Assembly: GCF_054482525.1 (NCBI RefSeq)
Contig: NZ_CM137006.1
Length of the DNA stretch: 64,000 nucleotides
Strand: one strand, 5' to 3'
In this document: positions 19,789-64,000 of the stretch, piece by piece
Numbering within the stretch: the first letter of the stretch is position 1
How the letters are laid out: every line of letters begins with the position of its first letter
Position numbers and translations under genes: made by a program
The notes under the pieces: generated by a model
Databases searched by the model: none
What the model was told of the DNA's origin: nothing
What the model saw: only the letters and a program-made list of their open reading frames with translations

Positions 19789-20211
19789 TTACGGTGTTAC
19801 CCCTTTTTTTAAAAGAATATTCCCGTACTTCGCTCGTTCGCCTGTGATAACGATCGCAAAGGCTTTTTGCGCCCGTTCATAAAACGCAAAACGATTGATG
19901 CGGATGATGTCAGGACAGGGGGCTTGTAGTGAAAGCGCATTACGATAACGTCGTTCTACTTCAGGATCGAGAGTGTCACCTTCTACCGCCGCCATCATCA
20001 CCAGCGGCGGGGCATAACTGTCCAGTTCAAATAACGGGATTATTGCCTGGAGCAAGTCGCTCACCAACAGGCCATCAGCGCGGATCACCTGCGGTCCCAT
20101 CGAATGGGCGGGAAAGTGAGCATCGGAAAAAATAATTTCATCTCCATGTCCCATCTCTGCCAGCACTTTCAATAGTTCGGGAGAAATTAACGGCGAAATT
20201 GTTTTCAGCAT
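19789..20211 (-). CDS. fucU: L-fucose mutarotase
   Basis: 140 aa; RbsD/FucU family; between fucK and fucR. Confidence 0.92.
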
Positions 20212-50554: not shown

Positions 50555-51868
<1,314 letters not shown>

Positions 51869-51887
51869 GTCTGACTTTATCTGATTT

Positions 51888-51918
51888 AAAAATGCCAGCC
51901 TTCGGGCTGGCATTTTTT
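51888..51918. terminator. Bidirectional intrinsic terminator between convergent eno and ygcG
   Basis: AAAAATGCCAGCC-ttcg-GGCTGGCATTTTTT: perfect stem flanked by A-run and T-run. Confidence 0.8.
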
Positions 51919-51927
51919 ATGGTTGAG

Positions 51928-52800
51928 TTACCAGCGACCGGACGCGCCGCCACCGCCAGAAGAACCGCCACCACCGCTAAATCCGCCGCCACTTGAGCCG
52001 CCACCGGAACCGCTGTTGTCTGAATGATAACTTCTACCAGATGCTTTTTTCTGAAGTACACATAAACAGGTAAAGACCATAATGGTGGTGAAAGTAAAAA
52101 AGAAGAAAAATACAGCAATGGAAAAAGTTTTATCGGAGAACAGGAATAAATCTAAAAGATAGATTGCTGAAATACAGACACTGCTTTTACATGCGCGACA
52201 AAAATTACTGCCTTGATGAAAAAACCAGAAAGGGAAGAACATCACTGCAAATACCCAAAAAATAGCAAAGTAGTAATGATCGCTGGAAGACGCTGATTCA
52301 CTTTCTGAAGGATTAGCCGAATATTGGTGTTGTGAAGTGAGTTGGTTATTCAAAGCGATTATAGCTAACTCTAATCCCTTAGCTAATTTTTGTTGTTTAA
52401 ATGCGGGTATCATGTTGCTACGGATGATATCTCCAGCCAGAGCATCGGTTACCTTTTCTTCCAGCCCATAACCTACCTGGATGCGGACAGTGCGATCCGA
52501 CCAGGCAACAATGATCAGTATCCCATCATTGCGTTTGGCATCTCCTAAACGCCAATTGTTAAAAACCCTTGTAGCATATTGTTCAATTGTCTCGTCTTTG
52601 GTTGTGGGAATAATTAATACAGCAATTTGTACTTGGGTATTATTGAAAATAGATTCTAACTTGTACGTCAGTTCTTTCTTTTCTTGTGAGTTTAAGCTAC
52701 TCGTAAGATCCGTAACTTGTTGCTGTAATTGTGGGACAATAGTTGGTTGGGCTGCAACAAAGGAACACACGAATGTGAATATTAGTATGAAATAGCGCAT
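51928..52800 (-). CDS. ygcG: TPM-domain membrane protein with Gly/Ser-rich C-terminal tail
   Basis: 290 aa from ATG at 52800; signal peptide, TPM domain, TM helix, [16 protein letters not shown] tail; ORF track extension upstream probably spurious. Confidence 0.8.
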
Positions 52801-53093
52801 TATAAATGTCTCATTAAATCTGGATAAATAAATTGACGGCGGCATCGGTAATTTGAGATTCGTTATAATTAAAAACGAACACAGAAAAAATAAGTATAAT
52901 TTTGGTGAATGTTTTTGACATGATTAAATCCCTTTACTTTATTTATTTCTGACATAATACGTTACCCCCTTTTATTATTAACGATCTGTTTCTCATTTTT
53001 CTTTAAACCTGCCTGTAACAGAATGTTAATAAGACATGATTGTTGTGGCAGGATCTGCAATAATTAACAATTATCCACTTCACAGAGAATGCT

Positions 53094-53765
53094 ATGCAGT
53101 ACCCGATTAACGAGATGTTCCAGACCCTGCAAGGTGAGGGTTACTTTACCGGCGTCCCCGCCATTTTTATTCGTTTACAGGGATGCCCGGTTGGCTGTGC
53201 CTGGTGCGACACCAAACACACCTGGGAAAAGCTTGAGGATCGGGAAGTTTCCCTTTTCAGCATTCTGGGTAAAACGAAAGAGAGTGATAAGTGGGGAGCA
53301 GCAAGCAGTGAAGACTTACTCGCAGTCATCGGTCGTCAGGGATACACCGCGCGTCACGTGGTGATTACGGGTGGTGAACCTTGTATTCATGATTTGCTGC
53401 CACTGACTGACCTGCTCGAAAAGAACGGTTTCAGTTGTCAGATAGAAACCAGCGGTACTCATGAAGTGCGTTGTACGCCGAATACCTGGGTCACCGTGTC
53501 GCCAAAGCTAAATATGCGTGGTGGTTATGAAGTATTGTCGCAAGCCCTGGAGCGAGCTAACGAAATTAAACACCCAGTTGGACGTGTACGTGATATCGAA
53601 GCACTGGATGAATTGCTTGCGACGCTGACCGATGATAAACCGCGAGTCATTGCACTGCAGCCGATTAGCCAAAAGGATGATGCCACACGTTTGTGCATTG
53701 AAACTTGCATTGCGCGTAACTGGCGTTTGTCGATGCAAACACATAAATATTTAAATATTGCCTGA
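53094..53765 (+). CDS. queE: 7-carboxy-7-deazaguanine synthase (radical SAM)
   Basis: 223 aa; CxxxCxxC-type cluster motif CPVGCAWC. Confidence 0.92.
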   Translation: MQYPINEMFQTLQGEGYFTGVPAIFIRLQGCPVGCAWCDTKHTWEKLEDREVSLFSILGKTKESDKWGAASSEDLLAVIGRQGYTARHVVITGGEPCIHDLLPLTDLLEKNGFSCQIETSGTHEVRCTPNTWVTVSPKLNMRGGYEVLSQALERANEIKHPVGRVRDIEALDELLATLTDDKPRVIALQPISQKDDATRLCIETCIARNWRLSMQTHKYLNIA

Positions 53766-54039
53766 TTACACATTTATATGCGTTATAAATGGGTGGAACC
53801 TGTAAAGACTTCCACTCATTTATATTTTTTGTCGCCTCTGAAAACTCATCCATTTTGCCCATTCCGGACTAATCATTGTCATTCTCTACAAATTCTGTGG
53901 CGTTAATTTTTCTCTGGGGTGAAAATTATTGCGGTAAAGTTTGGTAGATTTTAGTCGGTATAGGATTACTTTAAATATTTAGCTTTTCAATCAATGAATT
54001 AAGTGCTCTTTAACATAATGGATGTGTTGTTTGTGTGAT

Positions 54040-54104
54040 ACTGTAAAGTTGGTAGATTGTGACTGGCTTAAAAAATCATTAATTAATAATAGGTTATGTT
54101 TAGA
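54040..54104 (+). promoter_or_regulatory. AT-rich CRISPR leader
   Basis: TTAATTAATAATAGGTTATGTTTAGA immediately precedes the first repeat. Confidence 0.5.
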
Positions 54105-54255
54105 GAGTTCCCCGCGCGAGCGGGGATAAACCGAAAACCACGACCTGGCGATCGGCGTGCTGGATGAGTTTCCCGCGCGAGCGGGGATAAACCGGATAGG
54201 TGTTACACATATGACCAGGCACTGGCGAGTTCCCCGCGTCAGCGGGGATAACCAT
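54105..54255 (+). CRISPR. Minimal type I-E CRISPR array: 3 repeats (last degenerate), 2 spacers of 32 bp
   Basis: Repeats GAGTTCCCCGCGCGAGCGGGGATAAACCG (54105-54133), GAGTTTCCCGCGCGAGCGGGGATAAACCG (54166-54194), degenerate GAGTTCCCCGCGTCAGCGGGGATAACC.. (54227-54255); spacers 54134-54165 and 54195-54226. Confidence 0.85.
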
Positions 54256-54268
54256 TCAGGTATGTTCA

Positions 54269-54292
54269 GGCCGGGCAGTTTCCCGCCCGGCC
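54269..54292. terminator. GC-rich hairpin between CRISPR array and ygcE stop
   Basis: GGCCGGGC-agtttccc-GCCCGGCC; no clear U-tract on either strand. Confidence 0.35.
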
Positions 54293-54300
54293 TTCCTCAC

Positions 54301-55779
54301 TTACGCATTCGACCAGCTCTGGATCGAATCTTCATTCCCCAGCTCACCATGCATCACTTCATACGATTTTTTCAGGATCACATCAGTGTGCTTGGTTAGG
54401 TCTTTGAAAATGCCTTTATTCATCGCGTCGTAGCGTTTGGCATTGCTCTCAACAGGCATAAAGATATCTTTCACGCGAACCATTTTGTCGACAGCCGTTG
54501 CGTAATCCGGGTATAGCCCCAGACCTACCGCCGTATTAATCGCTGCCCCCAGACTTGCACAACCATTAATGGCGTTACGGCGTGCCGGAAGGTTGAACAC
54601 GTCGGCAAAAATCTGCATAAACAGATCGCTGTTCGAACCGCCGCCAGTAATGATCACATGCTTTGCAAAGTGATTCATTTCATTACACATATTGTCGTAA
54701 TTGTTCTTCAGCGTCAGCGCCACGCTTTCCAGTATCGAACGATATATCCATGCGTAATCCATGCTGGAATCAAAGCCGATCATAATCCCGCGTTTGTACG
54801 GTTCCCACGGATTGGTCAGCCAGTCCAGCACCGTCATCAGCCCATTACAGCCAGGTGGCACACTAGAGGCTTTCTTGTTGAGTAAATCTTCCGGTGAAAG
54901 ATCCTGCGCCCTGGCATCCTGAATTAACGACTCGCCTAACATGTCGCGTAGCCAGCTCACCGTCCACATGCCTTTGCGAATACCGTAACCTTCATACAGC
55001 AAGGTTTGCGGAATAGAAGACATAATCGGCCAGTACGCTACCGGATCTTTCGGCAGTGCTTTACCGTTCATCATCAGCGCGATGTAGGTGCCAAGAGAAA
55101 TCACCGCCGTTTCATCATCCAGTAATCCGGCTCCCAGAGCTTCTACCGGTTTATCACTGGTGGTACAAACAACCGGCAGCCCTGCTGGGAAATGTGTCGC
55201 CAGCGCGGCTTGAGGAGTGATATGCCCAAGAACAGTGCCCGGCATTTGCACATCAAACAGCATATGACGGGGGATATTAAACTTCTCCATGACTGCGGCA
55301 TCTTCACTCCATGCCCAGGTCTTATAATCCACCGGCCACTGACCAAAATAGTTGGCGATATTATCTTTAAACTCGCCGGTTAAGCGATGCGTCAGATAAC
55401 CTGAAAAAGAGGTGACATAGGCCACGTCAGGATTCGTATGTTCGTAAGGGCGTGTAACGCGTGCATCCTGCCAGCTGATCAACGGTGCAGCTGGCGTGCC
55501 ATCGGCTTTCAATAACGCACGGCAGCAACGGATGGATCCCAGACCAATACCGACAATATCGTCTTTATTCCCGGCAAACTGACTCATCAAATCGTGACCG
55601 GCAAAACATAATGATGCCCATAAATCGTCGTCAGGATGTTCTGCAGTATCGGCATCTGGCGTGTGCATCGGCTGTAATAAGCCTTTGCCTTCGCAAACCA
55701 CGTTACCTTCCAGATCGTACATCACCACTTTTGTGCTCTGACTTCCGCCATCAATCCCTATGATGTATTTTTTCGACAT
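54301..55779 (-). CDS. ygcE: FGGY-family carbohydrate kinase (glycerol kinase-like)
   Basis: 492 aa; FGGY N- and C-terminal domains; 26 nt after yqcE stop. Confidence 0.88.
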   Translation of the reverse strand: MSKKYIIGIDGGSQSTKVVMYDLEGNVVCEGKGLLQPMHTPDADTAEHPDDDLWASLCFAGHDLMSQFAGNKDDIVGIGLGSIRCCRALLKADGTPAAPLISWQDARVTRPYEHTNPDVAYVTSFSGYLTHRLTGEFKDNIANYFGQWPVDYKTWAWSEDAAVMEKFNIPRHMLFDVQMPGTVLGHITPQAALATHFPAGLPVVCTTSDKPVEALGAGLLDDETAVISLGTYIALMMNGKALPKDPVAYWPIMSSIPQTLLYEGYGIRKGMWTVSWLRDMLGESLIQDARAQDLSPEDLLNKKASSVPPGCNGLMTVLDWLTNPWEPYKRGIMIGFDSSMDYAWIYRSILESVALTLKNNYDNMCNEMNHFAKHVIITGGGSNSDLFMQIFADVFNLPARRNAINGCASLGAAINTAVGLGLYPDYATAVDKMVRVKDIFMPVESNAKRYDAMNKGIFKDLTKHTDVILKKSYEVMHGELGNEDSIQSWSNA

Positions 55780-55805
55780 GATTTTTCTCCTGTAATTTTC
55801 TGGAC

Positions 55806-57083
55806 TTACTTGCTGCTAGCCATAGCAGGGGCGCTATCAGCAGTACGAATTTTTTGGAACAGCAAAAAGGTAAAGACGATCACCATGGCAAGCGCCGCCA
55901 TGCCCATCAGCCACATATTGCGGTAGGCTTCTGCTGCGGGCAGGGTGTCTTGCCAGTGGCCGATAATTGGGTAAACGAAGACATCCGGCAGGAATCCAAT
56001 CACCGAACAAATACCTACCGTGGTGCCCATAATGTAAGACGGTGTTCTCGCTTCGCCAGGGCAGGCCCAGTACAGCCCGCGTGAGGCGTAACAGGTGAAT
56101 CCCAGAAGTAAAATCAGACCAATCCCCATCGCGACCGATTGCGGGTTAGAGTTCGTGATGAGCAGGGCAGTTAACGCCAGCAGGCCGAGTACGGAAAGGA
56201 TTTGGATCACGCGGGTAGGGGATTTCACTTTGCTGTAAGTGGTGATAATGCCGCCAAGCGGACCGCACAGTGCGCGGAAGATTTTGTTGATCACAATCCC
56301 CATGTAGCTCGCCGCCACCAGCGACATACCGTACATTTCGGTCAGATAGTTGGTGGAGTAACTCAGAATGGCGTAGATGGTGAAGACACCAAAAATCACC
56401 ATGCTGCAATACCAGGTGGTGCTGATGCGCAAAACGGCCAGGATGTCGCTAAGCTGGAATGACTGTTTTTCTTCGTTATTGGTATTGCGTAGGTTGTTGT
56501 TATCGCTAACAAAAAACCAACACAAAATGCCCAGCAGAATGTAAACCACACTGTAGATGATAATGACCGTTTTCAGGCTGGCGCTGTCATCCGGTGCAAA
56601 GCGAGAAAAGACCCACATGGTAAACACCGCCAGCGACATTACACCGACGCCGCGCAGCCCTTCCATCCAGCCCATAATTTTCCCTTGCTCGCTATGATCG
56701 CCCAGCAACGATGCGGCTTTAATCGACACCGACCACAGCATTAAAATCGTCGTTATCGCAAAGGCGACCTGAATACAGAGCATTACCCACAGCGGTGGAT
56801 ATGTTGCCATTAACAGACCCAGTAATCCGGTAATGATCATCGCGGAAGTAATCATTTTGCGGTGTGAAAATTTATCGGCAATAACGCCGCTGGGGGCATA
56901 AAGAATAATAGCCGCAATACCAAAGGTACTCATTATTAAACCTATCTCGGTATTGCTGAATCCCATAAATTTTGCCATGGGAATTTGATAAATATAACGT
57001 AAATAAGCCAGGTCGAAACTAACGCCGCCGCTAAAACTAATTATCGCGAGGGTTATCCAACGGCGATATGAGTTGTGTTGCAT
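55806..57083 (-). CDS. yqcE: MFS transporter
   Basis: 425 aa; 12 TM; first gene of yqcE-ygcE. Confidence 0.88.
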   Translation of the reverse strand: MQHNSYRRWITLAIISFSGGVSFDLAYLRYIYQIPMAKFMGFSNTEIGLIMSTFGIAAIILYAPSGVIADKFSHRKMITSAMIITGLLGLLMATYPPLWVMLCIQVAFAITTILMLWSVSIKAASLLGDHSEQGKIMGWMEGLRGVGVMSLAVFTMWVFSRFAPDDSASLKTVIIIYSVVYILLGILCWFFVSDNNNLRNTNNEEKQSFQLSDILAVLRISTTWYCSMVIFGVFTIYAILSYSTNYLTEMYGMSLVAASYMGIVINKIFRALCGPLGGIITTYSKVKSPTRVIQILSVLGLLALTALLITNSNPQSVAMGIGLILLLGFTCYASRGLYWACPGEARTPSYIMGTTVGICSVIGFLPDVFVYPIIGHWQDTLPAAEAYRNMWLMGMAALAMVIVFTFLLFQKIRTADSAPAMASSK

Positions 57084-57107
57084 ATCGTATTCCCATTTGT
57101 AATAGAC

Positions 57108-57155
57108 AAAAAAAAGAGAAAAGTAAGCCGCCCTTTCAGGTGGATTACTTTTCTC
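57108..57155 (-). terminator. Leader intrinsic terminator about 25 nt upstream of yqcE start (putative attenuator)
   Basis: On minus strand GAGAAAAGTAA-18 nt loop-TTACTTTTCTC (perfect 11 bp) followed by T8 run. Confidence 0.6.
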
Positions 57156-57204
57156 AGGTCTCTAGTAATTGCAATAAGAAATAACATGGAAAGCAGAGGT
57201 GTTG

Positions 57205-57220
57205 TGTGAGAGTAATCACG
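57205..57220. promoter_or_regulatory. CRP-like site, yqcE-proximal
   Basis: TGTGAgagtaaTCACg. Confidence 0.5.
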
Positions 57221-57261
57221 CTTCTGCTTTTTAAAATTATTTGACAATTCGAATATCACAC

Positions 57262-57277
57262 TGTGATTACGATCACA
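57262..57277. promoter_or_regulatory. CRP consensus site, ygcW-proximal
   Basis: TGTGAttacgaTCACA: both half-sites perfect with 6-bp spacer. Confidence 0.6.
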
Positions 57278-57331
57278 TTAGCGATTATGCCCTTATGATA
57301 AAAATTATCTCCAGTTACCAGAGATAATGAG

Positions 57332-57377
57332 AAAGGTAACTTCCCTCTCGCGGGGGAAGTTACCTTTCTTTTTTTTT
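57332..57377 (+). terminator. Leader intrinsic terminator about 25 nt upstream of ygcW start (putative attenuator)
   Basis: AAAGGTAACTTCCC-tctcgcgg-GGGAAGTTACCTTT (perfect 14 bp) followed by CTTTTTTTTT; upstream AGTTACC (57313-57319) can pair with GGTAACT (57335-57341) as an alternative antiterminator. Confidence 0.6.
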
Positions 57378-57401
57378 GCCTTACGGAAATTGGAGCTAAC
57401 T

Positions 57402-58187
57402 ATGTCAATCGAATCTCTCAATGCGTTCTCAATGGATTTTTTCTCCCTGAAAGGTAAAACCGCAATTGTTACCGGCGGGAATAGCGGTTTAGGCCAGGCA
57501 TTTGCCATGGCGCTGGCCAAAGCAGGCGCAAATATCTTTATTCCAAGCTTCGTTAAAGATAACGGCGAAACAAAGGGAATGATTGAAAAACAGGGTGTTG
57601 AAGTTGATTTTATGCAGGTGGATATCACCGCAAAAGGCGCGCCGCAGAAGATAATCGCCGCCTGTTGCGAACGTTTCGGTACCGTCGATATTCTGGTTAA
57701 CAATGCCGGTATTTGTAAGCTGAATAAGGTGCTGGACTTCGGTCGTGCCGACTGGGATCCAATGATTGATGTGAACCTGACCGCCGCATTCGAGTTAAGC
57801 TATGAAGCTGCAAAAATTATGATCCCGCAGAAAAGCGGTAAAATCATTAATATCTGTTCATTGTTCTCTTACTTAGGTGGACAATGGTCACCTGCTTATT
57901 CTGCCACTAAACATGCTCTTGCCGTATTCACCAAAGCCTATTGCGATGAATTAGGTCAATATAATATTCAGGTGAATGGTATTGCTCCGGGATATTACGC
58001 TACCGATATCACTCTGGCGACCCGTAGTAATCCAGAAACTAACCAGCGCGTTCTTGATCATATTCCGGCAAACCGTTGGGGCGATACTCAGGATTTAATG
58101 GGCGCAGCCGTATTCCTCGCAAGTCCGGCATCGAATTATGTCAACGGACATTTATTAGTGGTTGATGGCGGTTATTTAGTGCGCTAA
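57402..58187 (+). CDS. ygcW: Short-chain dehydrogenase/reductase (SDR)
   Basis: 261 aa from ATG at 57402; TGGNSGLG Rossmann motif and YxxxK catalytic pair; ORF track extension upstream spans the leader terminator and is spurious. Confidence 0.88.
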   Translation: MSIESLNAFSMDFFSLKGKTAIVTGGNSGLGQAFAMALAKAGANIFIPSFVKDNGETKGMIEKQGVEVDFMQVDITAKGAPQKIIAACCERFGTVDILVNNAGICKLNKVLDFGRADWDPMIDVNLTAAFELSYEAAKIMIPQKSGKIINICSLFSYLGGQWSPAYSATKHALAVFTKAYCDELGQYNIQVNGIAPGYYATDITLATRSNPETNQRVLDHIPANRWGDTQDLMGAAVFLASPASNYVNGHLLVVDGGYLVR

Positions 58188-58256
58188 TCCATAACGGTGG
58201 TTTCTGTTTTCTCTTATTAATGATTATTCCATTTTTATTATCAGGAAGGAATTACT

Positions 58257-59711
58257 ATGTCTTTATCTCGCGCAGCGATTGTCGACCAGCTAAAGGAAAT
58301 TGTTGGTGCAGATCGCGTAATTACCGATGAAACAGTATTAAAGAAAAACAGTATTGACCGTTTTCGTAAATTTCCGGATATTCATGGTATTTATACTTTG
58401 CCGATTCCGGCAGCGGTCGTAAAACTCGGTTCCACAGAACAAGTCTCCCGTGTGCTGAATTTTATGAATGCGCACAAAATTAACGGTGTGCCGCGTACCG
58501 GCGCTTCCGCCACTGAAGGTGGGCTGGAAACCGTTGTGGAAAACTCGGTGGTGCTCGACGGCTCCGCCATGAATCAAATCATTAATATTGATATTGAGAA
58601 TATGCAGGCCACGGCGCAATGTGGCGTTCCGCTGGAAGTGCTGGAAAACGCGTTGCGTGAAAAAGGTTACACCACGGGGCATTCTCCGCAGTCAAAGCCG
58701 CTGGCGCAGATGGGCGGCCTGGTAGCAACCCGCAGTATCGGGCAGTTCTCCACACTCTACGGCGCAATCGAAGATATGGTCGTTGGTCTGGAAGCAGTAT
58801 TGGCTGATGGCACCGTGACACGCATTAAAAACGTGCCACGTCGCGCGGCTGGCCCGGACATTCGTCACATCATCATCGGCAACGAAGGTGCATTGTGCTA
58901 TATCACTGAAGTAACAGTGAAAATCTTTAAATTCACCCCAGAAAACAACCTCTTCTACGGCTATATCCTGGAAGACATGAAAACCGGCTTCAACATCCTG
59001 CGTGAAATCATGGTGGAAGGGTATCGTCCGTCGATCGCTCGTTTGTATGACGCTGAAGATGGCACCCAACACTTCACCCATTTTGCCGATGGTAAATGTG
59101 TGCTGATCTTTATGGCTGAAGGTAACCCTCGCATTGCGAAGGCGACAGGCGAAGGGATTGCTGAAATCGTGGCACGTTACCCGCAATGCCAGCGAGTGGA
59201 CAGCAAGCTGATCGAAACCTGGTTTAATCACCTGAACTGGGGGCCGGATAAAGTGGCCGCTGAACGTGTGCAGATCCTCAAAACCGGCAACATGGGCTTT
59301 ACCACCGAAGTGTCCGGCTGCTGGAGCTGCATCCACGAAATCTACGAAAGCGTTATTAACCGTATTCGTACCGAGTTCCCGCACGCCGACGACATCACCA
59401 TGCTGGGCGGTCACTCCTCTCACAGCTACCAGAACGGCACCAACATGTACTTCGTTTACGACTACAACGTTGTTGACTGTAAGCCGGAAGAGGAAATCGA
59501 CAAGTACCACAATCCGCTCAACAAAATCATCTGCGAAGAAACCATTCGCCTCGGCGGTTCGATGGTGCACCACCACGGTATTGGTAAACATCGCGTTCAC
59601 TGGAGCAAACTGGAACACGGCAGCGCGTGGACGTTGCTGGAAGGTCTGAAAAAACAGTTCGATCCTAACGGCATTATGAATACGGGTACTATCTATCCGA
59701 TTGAAAAATAA
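58257..59711 (+). CDS. ygcU: FAD-linked oxidase (GlcD / alkyl-DHAP-synthase-like)
   Basis: 484 aa; FAD-binding PCMH-type domain. Confidence 0.88.
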   Translation: MSLSRAAIVDQLKEIVGADRVITDETVLKKNSIDRFRKFPDIHGIYTLPIPAAVVKLGSTEQVSRVLNFMNAHKINGVPRTGASATEGGLETVVENSVVLDGSAMNQIINIDIENMQATAQCGVPLEVLENALREKGYTTGHSPQSKPLAQMGGLVATRSIGQFSTLYGAIEDMVVGLEAVLADGTVTRIKNVPRRAAGPDIRHIIIGNEGALCYITEVTVKIFKFTPENNLFYGYILEDMKTGFNILREIMVEGYRPSIARLYDAEDGTQHFTHFADGKCVLIFMAEGNPRIAKATGEGIAEIVARYPQCQRVDSKLIETWFNHLNWGPDKVAAERVQILKTGNMGFTTEVSGCWSCIHEIYESVINRIRTEFPHADDITMLGGHSSHSYQNGTNMYFVYDYNVVDCKPEEEIDKYHNPLNKIICEETIRLGGSMVHHHGIGKHRVHWSKLEHGSAWTLLEGLKKQFDPNGIMNTGTIYPIEK

Positions 59712-59751
59712 TATGTCAGGCAGCGTTCCGCTATGAGGGGCGTTGCCTTTT

Positions 59752-59781
59752 CGGCTTCTCAGGCGAGAAGCCGTTCTTATT
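59752..59781 (+). terminator. Hairpin with weak U-tract between ygcU and ygcS
   Basis: CGGCTTCTC-aggc-GAGAAGCCG followed by TTCTTATT; a second imperfect hairpin lies at 59719-59747. Confidence 0.4.
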
Positions 59782-59803
59782 ACCGGACAATGAAGGGGTA
59801 AAA

Positions 59804-61141
59804 ATGAACACTTCACCGGTGCGAATGGATGATTTACCGCTTAACCGTTTTCACTGCCGCATTGCTGCGCTCACTTTCGGCGCGCACCTGACCGACGGTT
59901 ATGTTCTCGGCGTCATTGGTTACGCCATTATTCAGCTTACACCCGCCATGCAACTGACGCCGTTTATGGCGGGAATGATTGGCGGCTCGGCGCTACTTGG
60001 CCTGTTTATCGGTAGCCTGGTTTTGGGGTGGATCTCCGACCATATTGGTCGGCAAAAAATCTTCACCTTCAGCTTTTTGCTGATTACGCTCGCTTCGTTC
60101 TTACAATTTTTTGCCACCACGCCAGAGCATCTTATTGGACTGCGCATTTTGATCGGCATTGGTCTGGGAGGCGATTACTCAGTAGGTCACACTTTGCTGG
60201 CTGAATTTTCTCCGCGCCGCCATCGCGGTATTTTGCTGGGCGCATTCAGCGTGGTGTGGACCGTAGGCTATGTGCTGGCAAGTATTGCCGGACATCACTT
60301 TATTAGCGAAAGCCCGGAGGCCTGGCGCTGGCTGCTGGCATCGGCAGCTCTGCCCGCATTGTTGATTACGTTATTACGCTGGGGAACGCCAGAATCGCCA
60401 CGCTGGCTACTGCGCCAGGGGCGTTTTGCAGAAGCTCACGCTATCGTGCATCGCTATTTTGGTCCCCATGTTTTACTGGGCGATGAAGTGGCAACGGCGA
60501 CCCATAAACACATCAAAACCTTGTTCTCTTCGCGCTACTGGCGGCGCACAGCGTTTAACAGCGTCTTCTTTGTCTGCCTCGTAATCCCATGGTTTGTGAT
60601 TTATACCTGGCTGCCAACTATCGCCCAAACTATTGGTCTGGAAGATGCGCTGACCGCTAGCCTGATGCTTAATGCGTTGTTAATTGTGGGCGCGCTGCTG
60701 GGATTAGTTCTGACGCACCTGCTGGCACATCGCAAGTTTTTGCTGGGAAGTTTTTTGCTGCTGGCGGCAACGCTGGTAGTAATGGCCTGTTTGCCTTCCG
60801 GCAGTTCATTAACGCTGCTGCTTTTTGTTCTCTTCAGCACCACCATTTCGGCAGTCAGTAATCTGGTGGGCATTTTGCCTGCGGAAAGTTTTCCTACTGA
60901 CATTCGCTCGCTGGGCGTCGGTTTTGCCACCGCCATGAGTCGGTTGGGCGCGGCAGTAAGTACGGGCCTGCTGCCGTGGGTGCTGGCGCAGTGGGGAATG
61001 CAAGTCACCTTATTGCTCCTGGCGGCAGTGTTGTTGGTTGGTTTTGTCGTGACCTGGCTATGGGCACCAGAAACCAAAGCACTCCCGCTGGTGGCGGCGG
61101 GAAATGTTGGAGGTGCGAATGAACATTCTGTTAGCGTTTAA
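59804..61141 (+). CDS. ygcS: MFS transporter
   Basis: 445 aa; 12 TM; overlaps ygcR start by 23 nt. Confidence 0.88.
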   Translation: MNTSPVRMDDLPLNRFHCRIAALTFGAHLTDGYVLGVIGYAIIQLTPAMQLTPFMAGMIGGSALLGLFIGSLVLGWISDHIGRQKIFTFSFLLITLASFLQFFATTPEHLIGLRILIGIGLGGDYSVGHTLLAEFSPRRHRGILLGAFSVVWTVGYVLASIAGHHFISESPEAWRWLLASAALPALLITLLRWGTPESPRWLLRQGRFAEAHAIVHRYFGPHVLLGDEVATATHKHIKTLFSSRYWRRTAFNSVFFVCLVIPWFVIYTWLPTIAQTIGLEDALTASLMLNALLIVGALLGLVLTHLLAHRKFLLGSFLLLAATLVVMACLPSGSSLTLLLFVLFSTTISAVSNLVGILPAESFPTDIRSLGVGFATAMSRLGAAVSTGLLPWVLAQWGMQVTLLLLAAVLLVGFVVTWLWAPETKALPLVAAGNVGGANEHSVSV

Positions 61142-61898
61142 AGCCGAACCGGATGCCGGAATGCTGGCGGAAAAAGAGTGGCAGGCGGCGGCTCAGGGTA
61201 ATAGCGGACCGGATGTTTCGCTTCTGCGAAGTTTACTCGGTGCTGATGAACAGGCTGCCGCCGCGCTGCTGTTGACGCAGAGAAAAAACGGTACGTCGAT
61301 GTCTTTAACCGCGTTGAGCATGGGGGATGAACGGGCGTTGCACTGGCTGCGCTATCTCATGGCTCTTGGGTTTGAGGAAGCTGTATTACTGGAGACGGCG
61401 GCAGATCTGCGCTTTGCGCCGGAATTTGTCGCTCGCCATATTGCCGAATGGCAGCGTCAGAATCCGCTGGATCTGATAATTACCGGCTGCCAAAGCAGCG
61501 AAGGGCAGAATGGGCAAACGCCATTTTTGCTGGCGGAAATGCTGGGCTGGCCCTGCTTCACCCAGGTGGAGCGTTTTACTCTCGAAGCGCCGTTTATCAC
61601 CCTCGAACAGCGTACTGAAAACGGGCTGCGCTGTTGCCGGGTTCGCTTGCCTGCGGTGATTGCCGTGCGTCAGTGCGGTGAAGTGGCCTTGCCAGTACCG
61701 GGAATGCGCCAGCGAATGGCGGCGGGGAAAGCAGAAATTATCCGTAAAACTGTTGCTGCCGAATTGCCAGCGATGCTGTGTCTGCAACTGGCAAGAGCAG
61801 AGCAACAACGCGGAGCGACGCTGATTGATGGGCAAACGGTAGCAGAAAAAGCGCAAAAGCTATGGCAGGACTATTTACGTCAAAGGATGCAGCCATGA
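61119..61898 (+). CDS. ygcR: Electron transfer flavoprotein beta-subunit-like (FixA-like)
   Basis: 259 aa from ATG at 61119 with GGAGGTG Shine-Dalgarno; ETF-beta family. Confidence 0.85.
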   Translation: MNILLAFKAEPDAGMLAEKEWQAAAQGNSGPDVSLLRSLLGADEQAAAALLLTQRKNGTSMSLTALSMGDERALHWLRYLMALGFEEAVLLETAADLRFAPEFVARHIAEWQRQNPLDLIITGCQSSEGQNGQTPFLLAEMLGWPCFTQVERFTLEAPFITLEQRTENGLRCCRVRLPAVIAVRQCGEVALPVPGMRQRMAAGKAEIIRKTVAAELPAMLCLQLARAEQQRGATLIDGQTVAEKAQKLWQDYLRQRMQP

Positions 61899-62755
61899 AT
61901 ATCGCAATTGTGACAATAAATCAGGAGAATGCCGCAATAGCGAGCTGGCAGGCGGCGCAGGATTTCAGCGGTTGTACCCTGGCGCACTGGAAGATTGAAC
62001 CTCAGCCCGCTGTGGCGGAACAGGTGCTGGATGCGCTGGTGGAACAGTGGCAGCGAACGCCTGCGGACGTTGTTCTCTTTCCGCCGGGAACGTTTGGCGA
62101 TGAACTGTCGACCCGGCTGGCCTGGCGTTTACATGGTGCAAGCATCTGCCAGGTGACTTCGTTAGATATTTCAACCGTAAGCGTGCGCAAATCCCACTGG
62201 GGAAATGCGCTAACGGCGACGCTGCAAACAGAAAAACGCCCGCTATGCCTTTCCCTTGCCCGCCAGGCGGGAGCAGTGAAAAACGCCACGTTGCCCTCTG
62301 GTATGCAGCAACTGAACATTGTCCCAGGTGCGCTTCCCGACTGGCTGGTTAGCATAGAAAACCTGAAAAATGTTACCCGCGACTCATTAGCTGAAGCCAG
62401 ACGGGTGCTGGTGGTGGGGCAGGGCGGAGAGGCAGATAACCAGGAAATCGCTATGCTGGCAGAAAAGCTGGGAGCCGAAGTGGGCTACAGTCGGGCGCGA
62501 GTAATGAACGGTGGTGTTGATGCCGAAAAAGTGATTGGTATTTCCGGACATTTGCTGGCACCTGAGGTGTGTATTGTTGTTGGCGCTTCCGGCGCAGCAG
62601 CATTAATGGCGGGCGTACGCAATAGCAAGTTTGTGGTGGCGATTAATCATGACGCCAGCGCGGCGGTATTTTCACAGGCAGATGTTGGCGTGGTTGATGA
62701 CTGGAAAGCGGTGCTGGAGGCACTGGTGACAACCATTCACGCAGATTGCCAATAA
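61895..62755 (+). CDS. ygcQ: Electron transfer flavoprotein alpha-subunit-like (FixB-like)
   Basis: 286 aa from ATG at 61895 (ATGA overlap with ygcR stop); ETF-alpha FAD-binding C-terminal domain. Confidence 0.85.
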   Translation: MNIAIVTINQENAAIASWQAAQDFSGCTLAHWKIEPQPAVAEQVLDALVEQWQRTPADVVLFPPGTFGDELSTRLAWRLHGASICQVTSLDISTVSVRKSHWGNALTATLQTEKRPLCLSLARQAGAVKNATLPSGMQQLNIVPGALPDWLVSIENLKNVTRDSLAEARRVLVVGQGGEADNQEIAMLAEKLGAEVGYSRARVMNGGVDAEKVIGISGHLLAPEVCIVVGASGAAALMAGVRNSKFVVAINHDASAAVFSQADVGVVDDWKAVLEALVTTIHADCQ

Positions 62756-62803
62756 CTTGCTGCCGGATGATCCTGCCTACGGTTCTGGCCTGGGGACTTG
62801 TAA

Positions 62804-62836
62804 GCCTGATAAGACGCGTCAAGCGTCGCATCAGGC
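62804..62836. repeat. REP unit within a BIME between convergent ygcQ and ygcP
   Basis: GCCTGATAAGACGCGTCAAGCGTCGCATCAGGC; flanking partial units at about 62761-62782 and 62845-62871. Confidence 0.6.
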
Positions 62837-62901
62837 GCTGAATGTCGGATGTGGCGTGCAGCCTACAAATCACACAAATTCAATTCGTTACGATTATCCC
62901 G

Positions 62902-63477
62902 TCAAAGCAATTTTTTCGCTAGCGTCCAGACCCCGGTATTTGTGGTGGAAAGCGCCACGACACCTGCGTTAATCGCATTACGCGCATCTTCTTCATCGCA
63001 CACCAGCCCGCCGGCAATCAGCGGTTGGCGGATTTTCTCCGTCACCCAGCCCAGCACTTTAGGCATACAGCCTGGCAGGATCTCAATACAATCCGGATTC
63101 GATTGCGCAACTTGCTTATCAATGTTGTGAAACGAAATCGAATCAACAATAAACAGGCGATGAATACAGAAAAAACCTTCCGCTCTTGCCGCTTTCAACA
63201 TTGAGGCTTTGGTACTGATAATGCCGTCCGCCTCAGTCACCAGTTTCAAAAACTGAATCACCACTTCTTTATTTGACGCGCCTTCCAGCAAATCAACATG
63301 AATAAAAGCATATTTTCCGGCATTTTTAATCTTTTTAACGATTTGACTAATGGTGCAGATATTGCCGTACAACACGGAAATAAACTGGCATTCAGAGTCG
63401 ATTGCCAGTTGCAGGCTGGCATTATCTTTAACGGCAGCAATCACCGGATTCTGGCGGAGCAGGTGTAAGAGGGGCAT
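62902..63477 (-). CDS. ygcP: GlpP-family (glycerol-3-phosphate-responsive-type) transcription antiterminator
   Basis: 191 aa; shares GlpP signature blocks (DLLEG, DGIISTK, DCIEILPG, IAGGL, GVVALSTT) with B. subtilis GlpP as recalled. Confidence 0.85.
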   Translation of the reverse strand: MPLLHLLRQNPVIAAVKDNASLQLAIDSECQFISVLYGNICTISQIVKKIKNAGKYAFIHVDLLEGASNKEVVIQFLKLVTEADGIISTKASMLKAARAEGFFCIHRLFIVDSISFHNIDKQVAQSNPDCIEILPGCMPKVLGWVTEKIRQPLIAGGLVCDEEDARNAINAGVVALSTTNTGVWTLAKKLL

Positions 63478-63493
63478 AAATTATCCTTATTAT

Positions 63494-63754
63494 TTATCCA
63501 AAGCGGTAGGTGATGCCGAATCCGGAAGGCGGATAGTGCCACTGTTGTAGCGTTTTTTCATCGCACAGCAAACGGCAGGTGCCGCACTCCAGACAATTAC
63601 GATAATCAACGTGAAAATCACCTTCCGGTGTGAGCGAAAAAAGACCAGCCGGACAAGCGTTAATCAACTGTTGTGCCGTCTGGCGCTCAACGGAGTCAGC
63701 CGGAACAATGTGCGGCGCATCGGCAACGCGCCAGAGATTACGGGCTACAGACAT
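63494..63754 (-). CDS. ygcO: Ferredoxin-like protein (FixX-like)
   Basis: 86 aa from ATG at 63752-63754; Cys motif CLECGTCRLLC; ORF track extension upstream overlaps ygcN 3' end. Confidence 0.8.
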   Translation of the reverse strand: MSVARNLWRVADAPHIVPADSVERQTAQQLINACPAGLFSLTPEGDFHVDYRNCLECGTCRLLCDEKTLQQWHYPPSGFGITYRFG

Positions 63755-64000
63755 CGCAGACTCCTGATAACATCGCCCGCCAGATGCCACAGGCCGTGAC
63801 GACGTAAATGACGCCAGAATAACTGGCGCAGCGGTGGAACAGGTTTATCACCCTGATCCCATAAATCGCGGGAAATATCCTGCATTAACGCAGGCCACGC
63901 ACGGTACCATCCAGGGCGTTGCAAAAGCGCCGGAACATGCTGATAACGTTGTAGAACATCCCATAGCAGGCTGCGCTCGACGTTGTGATGATAAAGCGCA
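63745..64000 (-). CDS. ygcN: FAD-dependent oxidoreductase (FixC / ETF-QO-like), C-terminal fragment; 5' end outside window
   Basis: Open frame on minus strand from window edge to TAG at 63745-63747 (...LWDQGDKPVPPLRQLFWRHLRRHGLWHLAGDVIRSLRCL); not in ORF track because no start codon lies in the window; overlaps ygcO start by 10 nt. Confidence 0.6.
   Translation of the reverse strand, partial: ALYHHNVERSLLWDVLQRYQHVPALLQRPGWYRAWPALMQDISRDLWDQGDKPVPPLRQLFWRHLRRHGLWHLAGDVIRSLRCL

Follow-up and report, generated by a model that had tools for sequence, protein, structure and literature searches.

The ygc cluster of Escherichia coli occupies positions 54301 to 64000 of the window studied here, a 64,000-nt stretch of contig NZ_CM137006.1 (assembly GCF_054482525.1), and is wedged between the queuosine biosynthesis genes queE and queD. 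This 54301-64000 region is 100% identical to the chromosome of E. coli PCN033, and at least 80% of it was found in 5060 of 5426 complete E. coli genomes. The open reading frame (ORF) listing and the RefSeq annotation place nine ygc/yqc genes entirely inside the window, together with the last 256 nt of a tenth, ygcN, for which the coordinates and full sequence were taken from the RefSeq-annotated locus L001, extending past the window end. None of the ten reading frames is interrupted in this strain or in K-12, where every gene is annotated as putative; the pseudogenization that the original prediction named as evidence against a coherent module is thus not seen in either strain. The features of the cluster are as follows.

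54301-55779, minus strand: ygcE, FGGY-family kinase, 492 aa; second gene of the yqcE-ygcE operon
55806-57083, minus strand: yqcE, major facilitator superfamily (MFS) transporter, 425 aa; first gene of the leftward operon
57108-57182, minus strand: yqcE leader attenuator, found by covariance model R1 and folding
57262-57277, strand not assigned: CRP site TGTGATTACGATCACA, between the two divergent leaders
57301-57377, plus strand: ygcW leader attenuator, found by terminator scan, folding, and R1
57402-58187, plus strand: ygcW, short-chain dehydrogenase/reductase (SDR) of the KduD/gluconate-5-dehydrogenase type, 261 aa
58257-59711, plus strand: ygcU, predicted alkyl-dihydroxyacetone phosphate synthase (AGPS)-like FAD enzyme, 484 aa
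59804-61141, plus strand: ygcS, MFS transporter of the sugar-porter/aromatic-acid/NiaP-like type, 445 aa
61119-61898, plus strand: ygcR, divergent electron transfer flavoprotein (ETF) beta subunit, 259 aa
61895-62755, plus strand: ygcQ, divergent ETF alpha subunit, 286 aa
62902-63477, minus strand: ygcP, GlpP-family (PF04309) antiterminator-like protein, 191 aa
63494-63754, minus strand: ygcO, FixX-like 4Fe-4S ferredoxin, 86 aa
63745-64000, minus strand: 3' end of ygcN (full gene, 63745-65016), FixC/ETF-quinone-oxidoreductase-like FAD protein, 423 aa

The strands, short gaps, and overlaps of these genes are compatible with the three transcription units that had been proposed. The gap between yqcE and ygcE is 26 nt; ygcS and ygcR overlap by 23 nt and ygcR and ygcQ by 4 nt; ygcN and ygcO overlap by 10 nt, and ygcO is followed by ygcP after 16 nt. 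The two divergent operons are separated by a spacer of 318 bp between yqcE and ygcW.

CRP site, leader attenuators, and YgcP

The sequence TGTGATTACGATCACA in the yqcE-ygcW spacer is an exact match to a published CRP ChIP-seq site between ygcW and yqcE, and a ygcW/yqcE CRP site has also been predicted with PhyloScan. CRP half-sites with at least 9 of 10 bases are present between the two leaders in 43 out of 43 Enterobacterales loci, and the spacer sequence is otherwise variable. A transcriptome study lists yqcE-ygcE as Crp-activated. In a study of D-serine, ygcU was weakly induced (1.69-fold), and the mutant was without phenotype. A second CRP-like site, TGTGATAACGATCGCA, lies at 19843-19858 in the window and has 2 mismatches to the ygc site.

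A leader attenuator with a length of 77 nt and the consensus RTTACYAGAGA-N3-5-GAGAAARGTAAC...GTTRCYTTTCTC-U8 precedes each of the two operons. The terminator scan placed a 19-bp hairpin at 57329-57370 of the ygcW leader, with a U-tract to 57377, and the leader ends 24 nt upstream of the ygcW ATG. An antiterminator stem can form when 57313-57319 pairs with 57335-57341 around the purine-rich loop AGAGAUAAUGAGAAA. This leader folds with a z score of -6.8 and matches R1, the covariance model of the leader, with 77.3 bits (E value, 1.5e-12). The yqcE leader has a related fold, a hairpin followed by a U-run, with an intrinsic terminator at 57116-57155, a U8 tract at 57108-57115, and an antiterminator stem in which 57165-57170 pairs with 57144-57149. 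It also ends 24 nt before its ATG, scores 73.6 bits with R1 (E value, 9e-12), and is found at the same position in 39 Enterobacterales loci.

Covariation was measured on a 50-sequence alignment. The antiterminator helix (columns 15-21/39-45), in which an upstream GTTAC pairs with GTAAC of the terminator 5' arm, is paired in 82% of the cells, compared with at most 56% when the partner columns were slid; six of its seven pairs show compensatory changes, and none of 500 shuffles matched its covariation score. The terminator helix is 84% paired and also covaries. Column 39 of the alignment shows covariation with each of the two alternative partners that it has, which is the signature of mutually exclusive structures. 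The antiterminator consists of a 5- to 7-bp stem and a 13- to 15-nt loop of the form AGAGA...GAGAAA, and its 3' arm is shared with the 5' arm of the terminator. On their own, the antiterminator hairpins are weak (-1.4 to -6.7 kcal/mol) compared with the terminator (about -28 kcal/mol); termination is therefore expected to be the default, with a protein needed for read-through.

R1 has two strong matches in the 64-kb window and none elsewhere in it, each directly 5' of an operon, and the same two were found in K-12. BLAST searches detected the leader in 5064 of 5426 E. coli genomes (about 93%), at a median of two places per genome and with no annotated feature beneath. No feature is annotated in RefSeq at the ygcW leader in this strain or in K-12. 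In a search of 51800-64000 at an E value of ≤1, no Rfam family fits the leaders, the only overlap being a chance-level match to rliE (26 bits versus a gathering score of 90). A role of the hairpins as 3' terminators of neighboring genes was excluded by their position at the 5' ends of both operons. The original prediction recognized the GlpP-like antiterminator, which stands, and overlooked the two leader attenuators and the CRP site.

The leader is not restricted to E. coli. In Enterobacterales, Vibrionaceae, Clostridia, Bacilli, Negativicutes, and Actinomycetes, it also occurs 5' of ygcW-type, yqcE-type, BCCT, ygcU-ETF, and MttB-Opu genes, including six BCCT genes and one MttB-Opu operon. 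In Clostridia, a second copy was observed within the operon, directly before ygcU and the ETF genes (L067 9840-9911, L069 9821-9912, and L073 8705-8797), and the kinase/SDR part and the flavoenzyme/ETF part therefore appear to be separately attenuated.

YgcP matches the structure of Listeria GlpP (3KTS) over its full length (residues 11-184; E value, 8.5e-28) and, in a gap-free alignment, shares 31% identity with the Priestia GlpP, the gene of which adjoins glpF-glpK-glpD. The leader was found at an E value of <0.01 in all 35 of the YgcP-positive sources searched, with at least 43 bits in 33 of them. The leader is missing from 17 of the 20 loci without YgcP, and these use GntR, sigma-54, or LysR regulators; two of the three YgcP-negative loci that have the leader are contigs of <10 kb. 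YgcP most likely controls the two leaders, as this co-occurrence suggests. The R1 search found no leader upstream of ygcP itself. Published GlpP targets have a promoter, a GlpP site, and an inherent terminator in the 5' untranslated region, and the ligand is glycerol-3-phosphate. The glpF and glpD leaders of Priestia form a weak 5-bp hairpin with GGAGAAUNGGAGA in the loop and a 3' arm that is part of the terminator; the link to the RNA target of GlpP is one of architecture, not of sequence. At the Listeria GlpP locus, no glp genes were found nearby, and there was no R1 match.

A conserved leader whose alternative helices covary might also be a riboswitch that binds the inducer independently of any protein; YgcP would then be an enzyme and not a regulator that binds RNA. 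In favor of such a view, the TIM-barrel-like fold of PF04309 proteins resembles that of enzymes. However, the element that varies between the two states (a 5- to 7-bp stem with a 13- to 15-nt loop) is too small for known aptamers, the association of leader and YgcP is almost perfect, and the layout is the same as that of experimentally established GlpP targets, so that a riboswitch of this kind is highly improbable.

YgcP would be produced from the ygcNOP unit. No terminator was found between queD and ygcN, and no clear promoter or leader was found upstream of ygcN. The start of ygcN lies 77 nt past the queD stop (queD, L001 16794-17159), and across this terminator-free gap queD and ygcNOP may share a transcript. 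The convergent genes ygcQ and ygcP are separated by 146 nt, and a palindrome of the repetitive extragenic palindromic (REP) type, GCCTGATAAGACGCGTCAAGCGTCGCATCAGGC, lies in this interval at 62803-62836; its match to the REP-derived naRNA4 family of Rfam is partial (29 bits, under the gathering score).

YgcU and the other proteins of the cluster

Pfam searches identified FGGY_N and FGGY_C in YgcE, MFS_1 in YqcE, adh_short in YgcW, FAD_binding_4 and FAD-oxidase_C in YgcU, Sugar_tr/MFS in YgcS, ETF in YgcR, ETF_alpha in YgcQ, G3P_antiterm in YgcP, and a FixC-like FAD protein in YgcN. These results agree with all of the family labels given earlier, except for the subtype of YgcU. Every NCBIfam score of the cluster proteins is under the curated cutoff; therefore, no protein is an equivalog of a named enzyme.

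When YgcU was compared with all PDB sequences, the mammalian and Dictyostelium AGPS proteins ranked first (E values, 5e-40 to 2e-38), followed at later ranks by glycolate oxidase/D-lactate dehydrogenase, LctD, and D2HGDH types (E values, 1e-25 to 3e-16). The catalytic positions of AGPS were fixed through the wild-type, R419H (4BC7), and Y578F (4BCA) entries. In the residue alignment, YgcU Arg262, Tyr398, and His438-440 (in VHHHGIGK) stand opposite AGPS Arg419, Tyr578, and His615-617, and these YgcU residues are invariant in a homologue alignment covering Enterobacterales, Vibrionaceae, Negativicutes, Bacilli, and Desulfobacterota. Foldseek with an AlphaFold model of YgcU returned AGPS chains for all of the top 30 matches; the model was built from a 10-sequence alignment and has a mean predicted local distance difference test (pLDDT) score of only 62, and the ranking is weakly independent evidence. 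By its sequence, YgcU is classed as AGPS-like, not GlcD-like.

The original prediction described YgcU as a FAD-linked, GlcD-like oxidase. A related reading is that YgcU is a GlcD/LctD-like D-2-hydroxyacid dehydrogenase feeding the ETF and that the cluster oxidizes a hydroxy acid or sugar acid. YgcU does belong to the FAD_binding_4 superfamily and gives a GlcD match of 144 bits; LctD is found among the solved relatives of YgcU and LctC/LctB among those of YgcQ and YgcR, and YgcW resembles sugar-acid dehydrogenases. However, the GlcD score is far under the cutoff of 568 bits, and YgcU has HHHGIG where GlcD-type enzymes carry EHGVG. A true GlcD-type paralogue, which retains NHLHVN and EHGVGK, is encoded next to the ETF in 17 anaerobe loci, and E. 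coli is without it. In addition, the reading provides no evident role for the FGGY kinase or the GlpP-type regulator. A GlcD-like 2-hydroxyacid oxidase is not supported for YgcU, given the missing EHGxG motif and the AGPS-type Arg, Tyr, and HHH loop, and the hydroxyacid reading of the whole cluster is very unlikely.

YgcW is the protein of the cluster that comes nearest to an NCBIfam cutoff (KduD model, 345 bits versus 369), and among solved structures it is nearest to KduD-type enzymes and gluconate 5-dehydrogenases. The best NCBIfam matches of YgcE are xylulokinase and autoinducer 2 (AI-2) kinase, with about 140 bits (best, 143 versus a cutoff of 380), and its nearest solved structures are the AI-2 kinase LsrK (E value, 1e-29) and then glycerol kinases. 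YqcE shows weak matches to the D-galactonate and organophosphate (PgtP/GlpT-type) transporter subfamilies, and yqcE homologues are also found 3' of the leader in Photobacterium and Saccharopolyspora. The NCBIfam subfamily matches of YgcS are all under their cutoffs, and ygcS is limited to the Enterobacterales versions of the cluster. In an engineering study, YgcS overexpression led to a higher conversion of nicotinamide to nicotinamide mononucleotide. Between ygcU and ygcS, a GC-rich hairpin with a weak T-tail, CGGCTTCTCAGGCGAGAAGCCG, was observed at 59752-59773; in other strains, the ygcS start is called upstream of this hairpin, which gives proteins of 469 to 476 aa versus 445 aa here.

The redox proteins are more divergent. 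The best NCBIfam score of YgcR is only 44 bits, and its solved relatives are the Paracoccus and human EtfB proteins (E value, 1e-12), with non-bifurcating EtfB proteins being nearest. YgcQ scores 80 bits with NCBIfam; its FAD-binding C-terminal segment (SRARV to the end) aligns with LctC and human EtfA, to which YgcQ is about equally near. YgcO was assigned to FixX via NCBIfam only (76 bits versus a cutoff of 166) and has a CxxCxxCxxxC motif. The full YgcN protein scores 386 bits with the PRK10015 model and 368 bits with the FixC model, both below the cutoffs. By these scores, YgcN and YgcO are placed in the FixCX group at the subfamily level only.

Conserved core and accessory redox genes

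The comparative set comprised four loci from encoding contigs and 80 species loci from one genome scan. Gene content was scored by tblastn and ORF clustering, and because some contigs are incomplete, the counts are lower bounds. YgcU was found in 81 of 81 loci, YgcW in at least 76, YgcE (co-occurring with ygcU) in at least 70, and YgcP in at least 56, compared with at least 59 for ETF alpha and at least 53 for ETF beta. The identity of YgcU is at least 65 to 73% in Sporomusa, Alkalihalobacillus, Photobacterium, Desulfobacula, and other genera; YgcW is 64 to 96% identical across phyla and always adjoins ygcU. Seven lineages keep the genes ygcW, ygcE, ygcU, and ygcP side by side, with YgcU being 65 to 99% identical across them: Enterobacterales, Vibrionaceae, Clostridia, Bacilli, Negativicutes, Actinomycetes, and Desulfobacterota. 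By this gene content, the unit that is conserved across 80 species of at least six phyla is YgcP, YgcW, YgcE, and YgcU.

The redox genes have a narrower distribution. YgcN and YgcO are restricted to Enterobacterales. ETF is missing from about one-fourth of the 80 species loci, including those of Halobacillus, Thalassobacillus, Virgibacillus, Alkalihalobacillus, Saccharopolyspora, and SAR324 and the clusters of the Erwinia/Pantoea/Izhakiella/Serratia proteamaculans type. The minimal operon of Halobacillus consists of the leader, the SDR, the kinase, YgcU, and a BCCT transporter, with ygcP being divergent. In strict anaerobes, a GlcD-type flavoenzyme is added, in some cases together with a further ETF pair that has a ferredoxin domain.

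Codon-level dN/dS values of E. coli versus Escherichia albertii, Citrobacter amalonaticus, and Klebsiella spallanzanii follow the same division. They are 0.01 to 0.06 for ygcW, ygcU, ygcP, ygcE, yqcE, and ygcS, similar to those of the housekeeping neighbors queD, queE, and cysJ. For ygcR, ygcQ, and ygcO, they are 0.12 to 0.30 overall (0.12 to 0.30, 0.15 to 0.23, and 0.12 to 0.23, respectively), and for ygcN, they are 0.06 to 0.14. The ETF/FixCX genes thus evolve 5 to 10 times faster than the core, and the redox module is under purifying selection that is much weaker than that of the core; it is accessory rather than central. The original prediction had included a dedicated FixABCX-type chain, and a place for this chain in the conserved center of the cluster is contradicted by the absence of ETF from about one-fourth of the loci, the restriction of FixC and FixX, and the higher dN/dS values. 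Its claim of a coherent cluster is supported, with YgcP, YgcW, YgcE, and YgcU as the unit kept across phyla and ETF and FixCX as accessory genes.

The fast evolution of ygcR, ygcQ, and ygcO and their very low family scores could also mean that the E. coli cluster is a cryptic and partly decaying remnant, in which the ETF/FixCX half no longer has its original dehydrogenase partner and the pathway runs rarely, if at all. The GlcD-type partner of the anaerobes is missing in E. coli, 362 of 5426 E. coli genomes are without the leader, and no phenotype is reported in the accessible literature. However, the ten frames are intact here and in K-12, the dN/dS values of the core are as low as those of its housekeeping neighbors, even the fast-evolving genes have values well under 1, and the leaders and the CRP site are conserved over Enterobacterales. 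Decay to a remnant is accordingly an improbable account, about as much so as hydroxy acid oxidation.

The transporters differ by lineage, with the MFS proteins YqcE and YgcS in Enterobacterales and BCCT (14 loci) or ProV/ProW/OpuAC betaine ABC transporters elsewhere. Recurrent neighbors of the core include non-Pyl MttB-family methyltransferases with corrinoid and pterin proteins, an aspartase-like lyase, BADH/SSADH-like aldehyde dehydrogenases (ALDHs), class III alcohol dehydrogenases (ADHs) or L-glyceraldehyde-3-phosphate/methylglyoxal-reductase-like aldo-keto reductases (AKRs), and LysR regulators of the GcvA/choline-sulfate type. The aspartate-ammonia-lyase-like gene, which is below the family cutoff, was observed beside the core in Alkalihalobacillus (L006 1932-5984), accompanied by a BADH-like ALDH and a class III ADH, and in Desulfopila (L055 16412-20197), accompanied by an AKR and an MttB-like protein. 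It is a candidate for the breakdown of a released amino-acid betaine.

The same gene set may alternatively be read by analogy with GlpK and GlpD, which is the reading nearest to the original prediction. YgcE would phosphorylate a polyol, YgcU would dehydrogenate the phosphate, electrons would pass via YgcRQ and YgcNO to quinone, YgcW would perform a second, NAD-linked oxidation, and YgcP would sense the polyol phosphate. The set parallels glpP-glpFK-glpD of Bacillus subtilis, the ETF genes lie directly 3' of ygcU in most anaerobes and in Enterobacteriaceae, and FixC-like and FixX-like proteins are present. AGPS-type sites bind the dihydroxyacetone phosphate (DHAP) moiety, which would be the product of the C2 oxidation of a polyol 1-phosphate. 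However, the aerobic Bacilli, Saccharopolyspora, SAR324, and Erwinia/Pantoea-type loci have YgcW, YgcE, and YgcU without ETF; the transporters under the same riboregulator are of the BCCT/Opu betaine type and are not polyol carriers; and an operon with a non-Pyl MttB-family methyltransferase is part of the regulon. In addition, the retention of the AGPS-specific Tyr and HHH loop is left unexplained. Polyol oxidation of this type is therefore unlikely, although it is the best placed of the alternatives.

The DNA next to the cluster on the queE side (queE, 53094-53765 in the window) varies among strains. The queE-ygcE spacer (53766-54300) has a length of 535 bp in this strain; K-12 has 1372 bp at this point, and three further E. 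coli loci have about 1067 bp. The DNA that accounts for the difference is rich in AT (34% GC) and without a long ORF, and short repeats of about 23 nt flank it. Nearby, yqcG (window, about 52814-52955; L001 4514-4655) is a frameshifted pseudogene in this strain, and the K-12 gene is labeled "cell envelope stress response protein YqcG."

Proposed pathway and comparison with known systems

The reading that we favor, tentatively, is that the cluster encodes a pathway controlled by CRP and by YgcP antitermination in which a C3-substituted and probably zwitterionic glycerol is converted to a substituted DHAP that is cleaved by YgcU. The regulatory part of this model is largely shown by the CRP site, the two attenuators, and the association of the leader with YgcP, as far as sequence comparison reaches. 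CRP binds one site between the two divergent promoters, and each transcript would open with the 77-nt leader, whose default fold is predicted to be a strong intrinsic terminator before ygcW or yqcE. YgcP, supplied by the separate ygcNOP unit and loaded with a phosphorylated intermediate, would bind and stabilize the antiterminator and allow read-through.

The substrate would be a glycerol-like 1,2-diol with a substituent X on C3. YgcW would oxidize the secondary alcohol beside the terminal CH2OH, like its KduD/IdnO relatives, and YgcE would phosphorylate the primary alcohol to yield X-CH2-CO-CH2-OPO3, an analogue of acyl- or alkyl-DHAP. YgcU may then break the C1-X bond by AGPS-type flavin chemistry, producing DHAP or a close derivative and X. 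YgcR/YgcQ and YgcN/YgcO would form an accessory branch for electrons from, or reoxidation of, the YgcU flavin to quinone without O2; the ETF/FixCX proteins would either act as the electron acceptor, if YgcU is a true dehydrogenase, or keep the flavin oxidized without O2.

The earlier proposal of polyol or hydroxy acid oxidation was right in describing a catabolic cluster with uptake and a kinase; its substrate class was too generic, because the same leader drives BCCT/Opu transporters and an MttB operon in other phyla. Erythritol, threitol, or a generic polyol was ruled out as the favored class by these BCCT, Opu, and MttB genes. The presence of betaine-type transporters and the MttB operon under the leader, with ADH/AKR, ALDH, and aspartase-like genes nearby, suggests that X in other phyla is probably an ether- or onium-linked zwitterionic or quaternary ammonium head group. 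A deacylated betaine lipid, such as that derived from diacylglyceryltrimethylhomoserine (DGTS), with its ether-linked trimethylhomoserine, is a candidate that fits all of the context hints, and glycerophosphocholine-like compounds are candidate alternative substrates.

In its broadest form, the proposal becomes somewhat doubtful. The cluster would then be the first case of AGPS-type flavin chemistry serving catabolism in bacteria: a glyceryl compound with a nonhydrolyzable, ether- or onium-linked zwitterionic head group on C3 (e.g., glyceryl-trimethylhomoserine from DGTS) would be taken up, oxidized, phosphorylated, and cleaved by YgcU to DHAP and the head group. Its further degradation in other phyla would be carried out by ADH/AKR, ALDH, and an aspartase-like trimethylamine lyase or by MttB demethylases, and the regulon would be under a new class of GlpP-family antiterminator RNA spanning Gram-negative and Gram-positive phyla.

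Several points weigh against the CRP- and YgcP-controlled cleavage pathway. The chemical steps are drawn from family resemblance and gene context. AGPS itself catalyzes a redox-neutral exchange, and the tight ETF linkage in anaerobes points to possible true dehydrogenase activity of YgcU. About 150 N-terminal residues of AGPS have no counterpart in YgcU, the residue 60 of which corresponds to AGPS residue 215. The E. coli version has MFS rather than BCCT transporters and is without downstream head-group genes, and its substrate may therefore differ from that of other phyla. R1 matches to the Priestia glp leaders are nonsignificant (glpD, 17.1 bits; glpF, 9.3 bits). A scan for the sigma-70 consensus gave 7 matches versus 12 expected, which is not above chance, and the transcription start sites are therefore estimates only.

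The original prediction assigned no substrate, which is consistent with the accessible literature, in which no function is given for any ygc gene and no paper joins the defining terms of the proposed pathway. The ygc genes themselves are already known, as y-genes, as is the frame of GlpP-type antitermination of a catabolic operon. What appears to be new is the leader class, the assignment of YgcU to the AGPS type together with the catalytic residues, the division into core and accessory genes, and the proposal of a zwitterionic substrate.

The ten near-core E. coli genes b2766-b2776 are still without function. For these genes, a 77-nt RNA element, with two copies per genome in about 93% of E. 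coli and found in many phyla, is defined here and a candidate protein partner is named. The model also predicts, in concrete enzymological terms, that a substituted DHAP undergoes AGPS-type chemistry, and it would narrow the substrate class to zwitterionic glyceryl compounds. If the proposed chemistry is true, it would show how bacteria, among them halophiles, marine sulfate reducers, and enterics of the gut, obtain the glycerol moiety of ether-linked or otherwise nonhydrolyzable lipid head groups, and GlpP-type riboregulation would be known from Proteobacteria as well. A portable inducible switch might be built from the leader and YgcP, for which GlpP and PglpD provide a precedent.

Among known enzymes, YgcU most resembles AGPS/ADPS (EC 2.5.1.26; PDB 4BBY and 2UUU), with which it shares the FAD_binding_4 and FAD-oxidase_C fold, the best sequence and fold matches, and equivalents of the catalytic residues that are invariant in the YgcU family. 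Unlike AGPS, it lacks the long N-terminal region, it is encoded beside a kinase, an SDR, small-molecule transporters, and often ETF rather than lipid-synthesis genes, the substituent that it handles is probably small and polar instead of a fatty chain, and a net redox role is possible for it. E. coli is not known to make ether lipids. LctBCD and other ETF-using D-2-hydroxyacid dehydrogenases are similar in that the gene of a FAD_binding_4 enzyme adjoins those of EtfB and EtfA, and LctC is the best solved relative of YgcQ. However, the active-site motif of YgcU is of the AGPS type, not the GlcD type, the E. coli ETF alpha subunit has no ferredoxin domain, and YgcR is closest to non-bifurcating EtfB.

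The FixABCX and YdiQRST systems of E. coli also have ETF beta and alpha genes, YgcN scores 368 to 386 bits with FixC/YdiS-type models, and YgcO matches FixX. In contrast to those systems, all four ygc proteins are below the curated cutoffs, with YgcR and YgcQ extremely so (35 to 80 bits), and the ygc redox genes are split over two convergent operons, have no acyl coenzyme A dehydrogenase partner, evolve fast, and are dispensable in many homologous clusters.

The closest regulatory parallel is the GlpP system of B. subtilis (glpD-glpFK-glpTQ). YgcP is a PF04309 protein of the same length as GlpP, and in both systems the leader starts at the promoter, carries an intrinsic terminator, and contains a weak hairpin that has two GAGA-type purine repeats in its loop and overlaps the terminator 5' arm. 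The regulated genes of both include a transporter, an FGGY kinase, and a flavin dehydrogenase. However, the ygc leader is a distinct sequence class (R1 scores of 9 to 17 bits on glp leaders versus 44 to 83 bits on ygc-type leaders), the enzymes are an SDR and an AGPS-like flavoenzyme instead of GlpD, the transporters are of the MFS, BCCT, or Opu type instead of GlpF/GlpT, and the ygc system is found in Gram-negative enterics, with CRP as an additional control.

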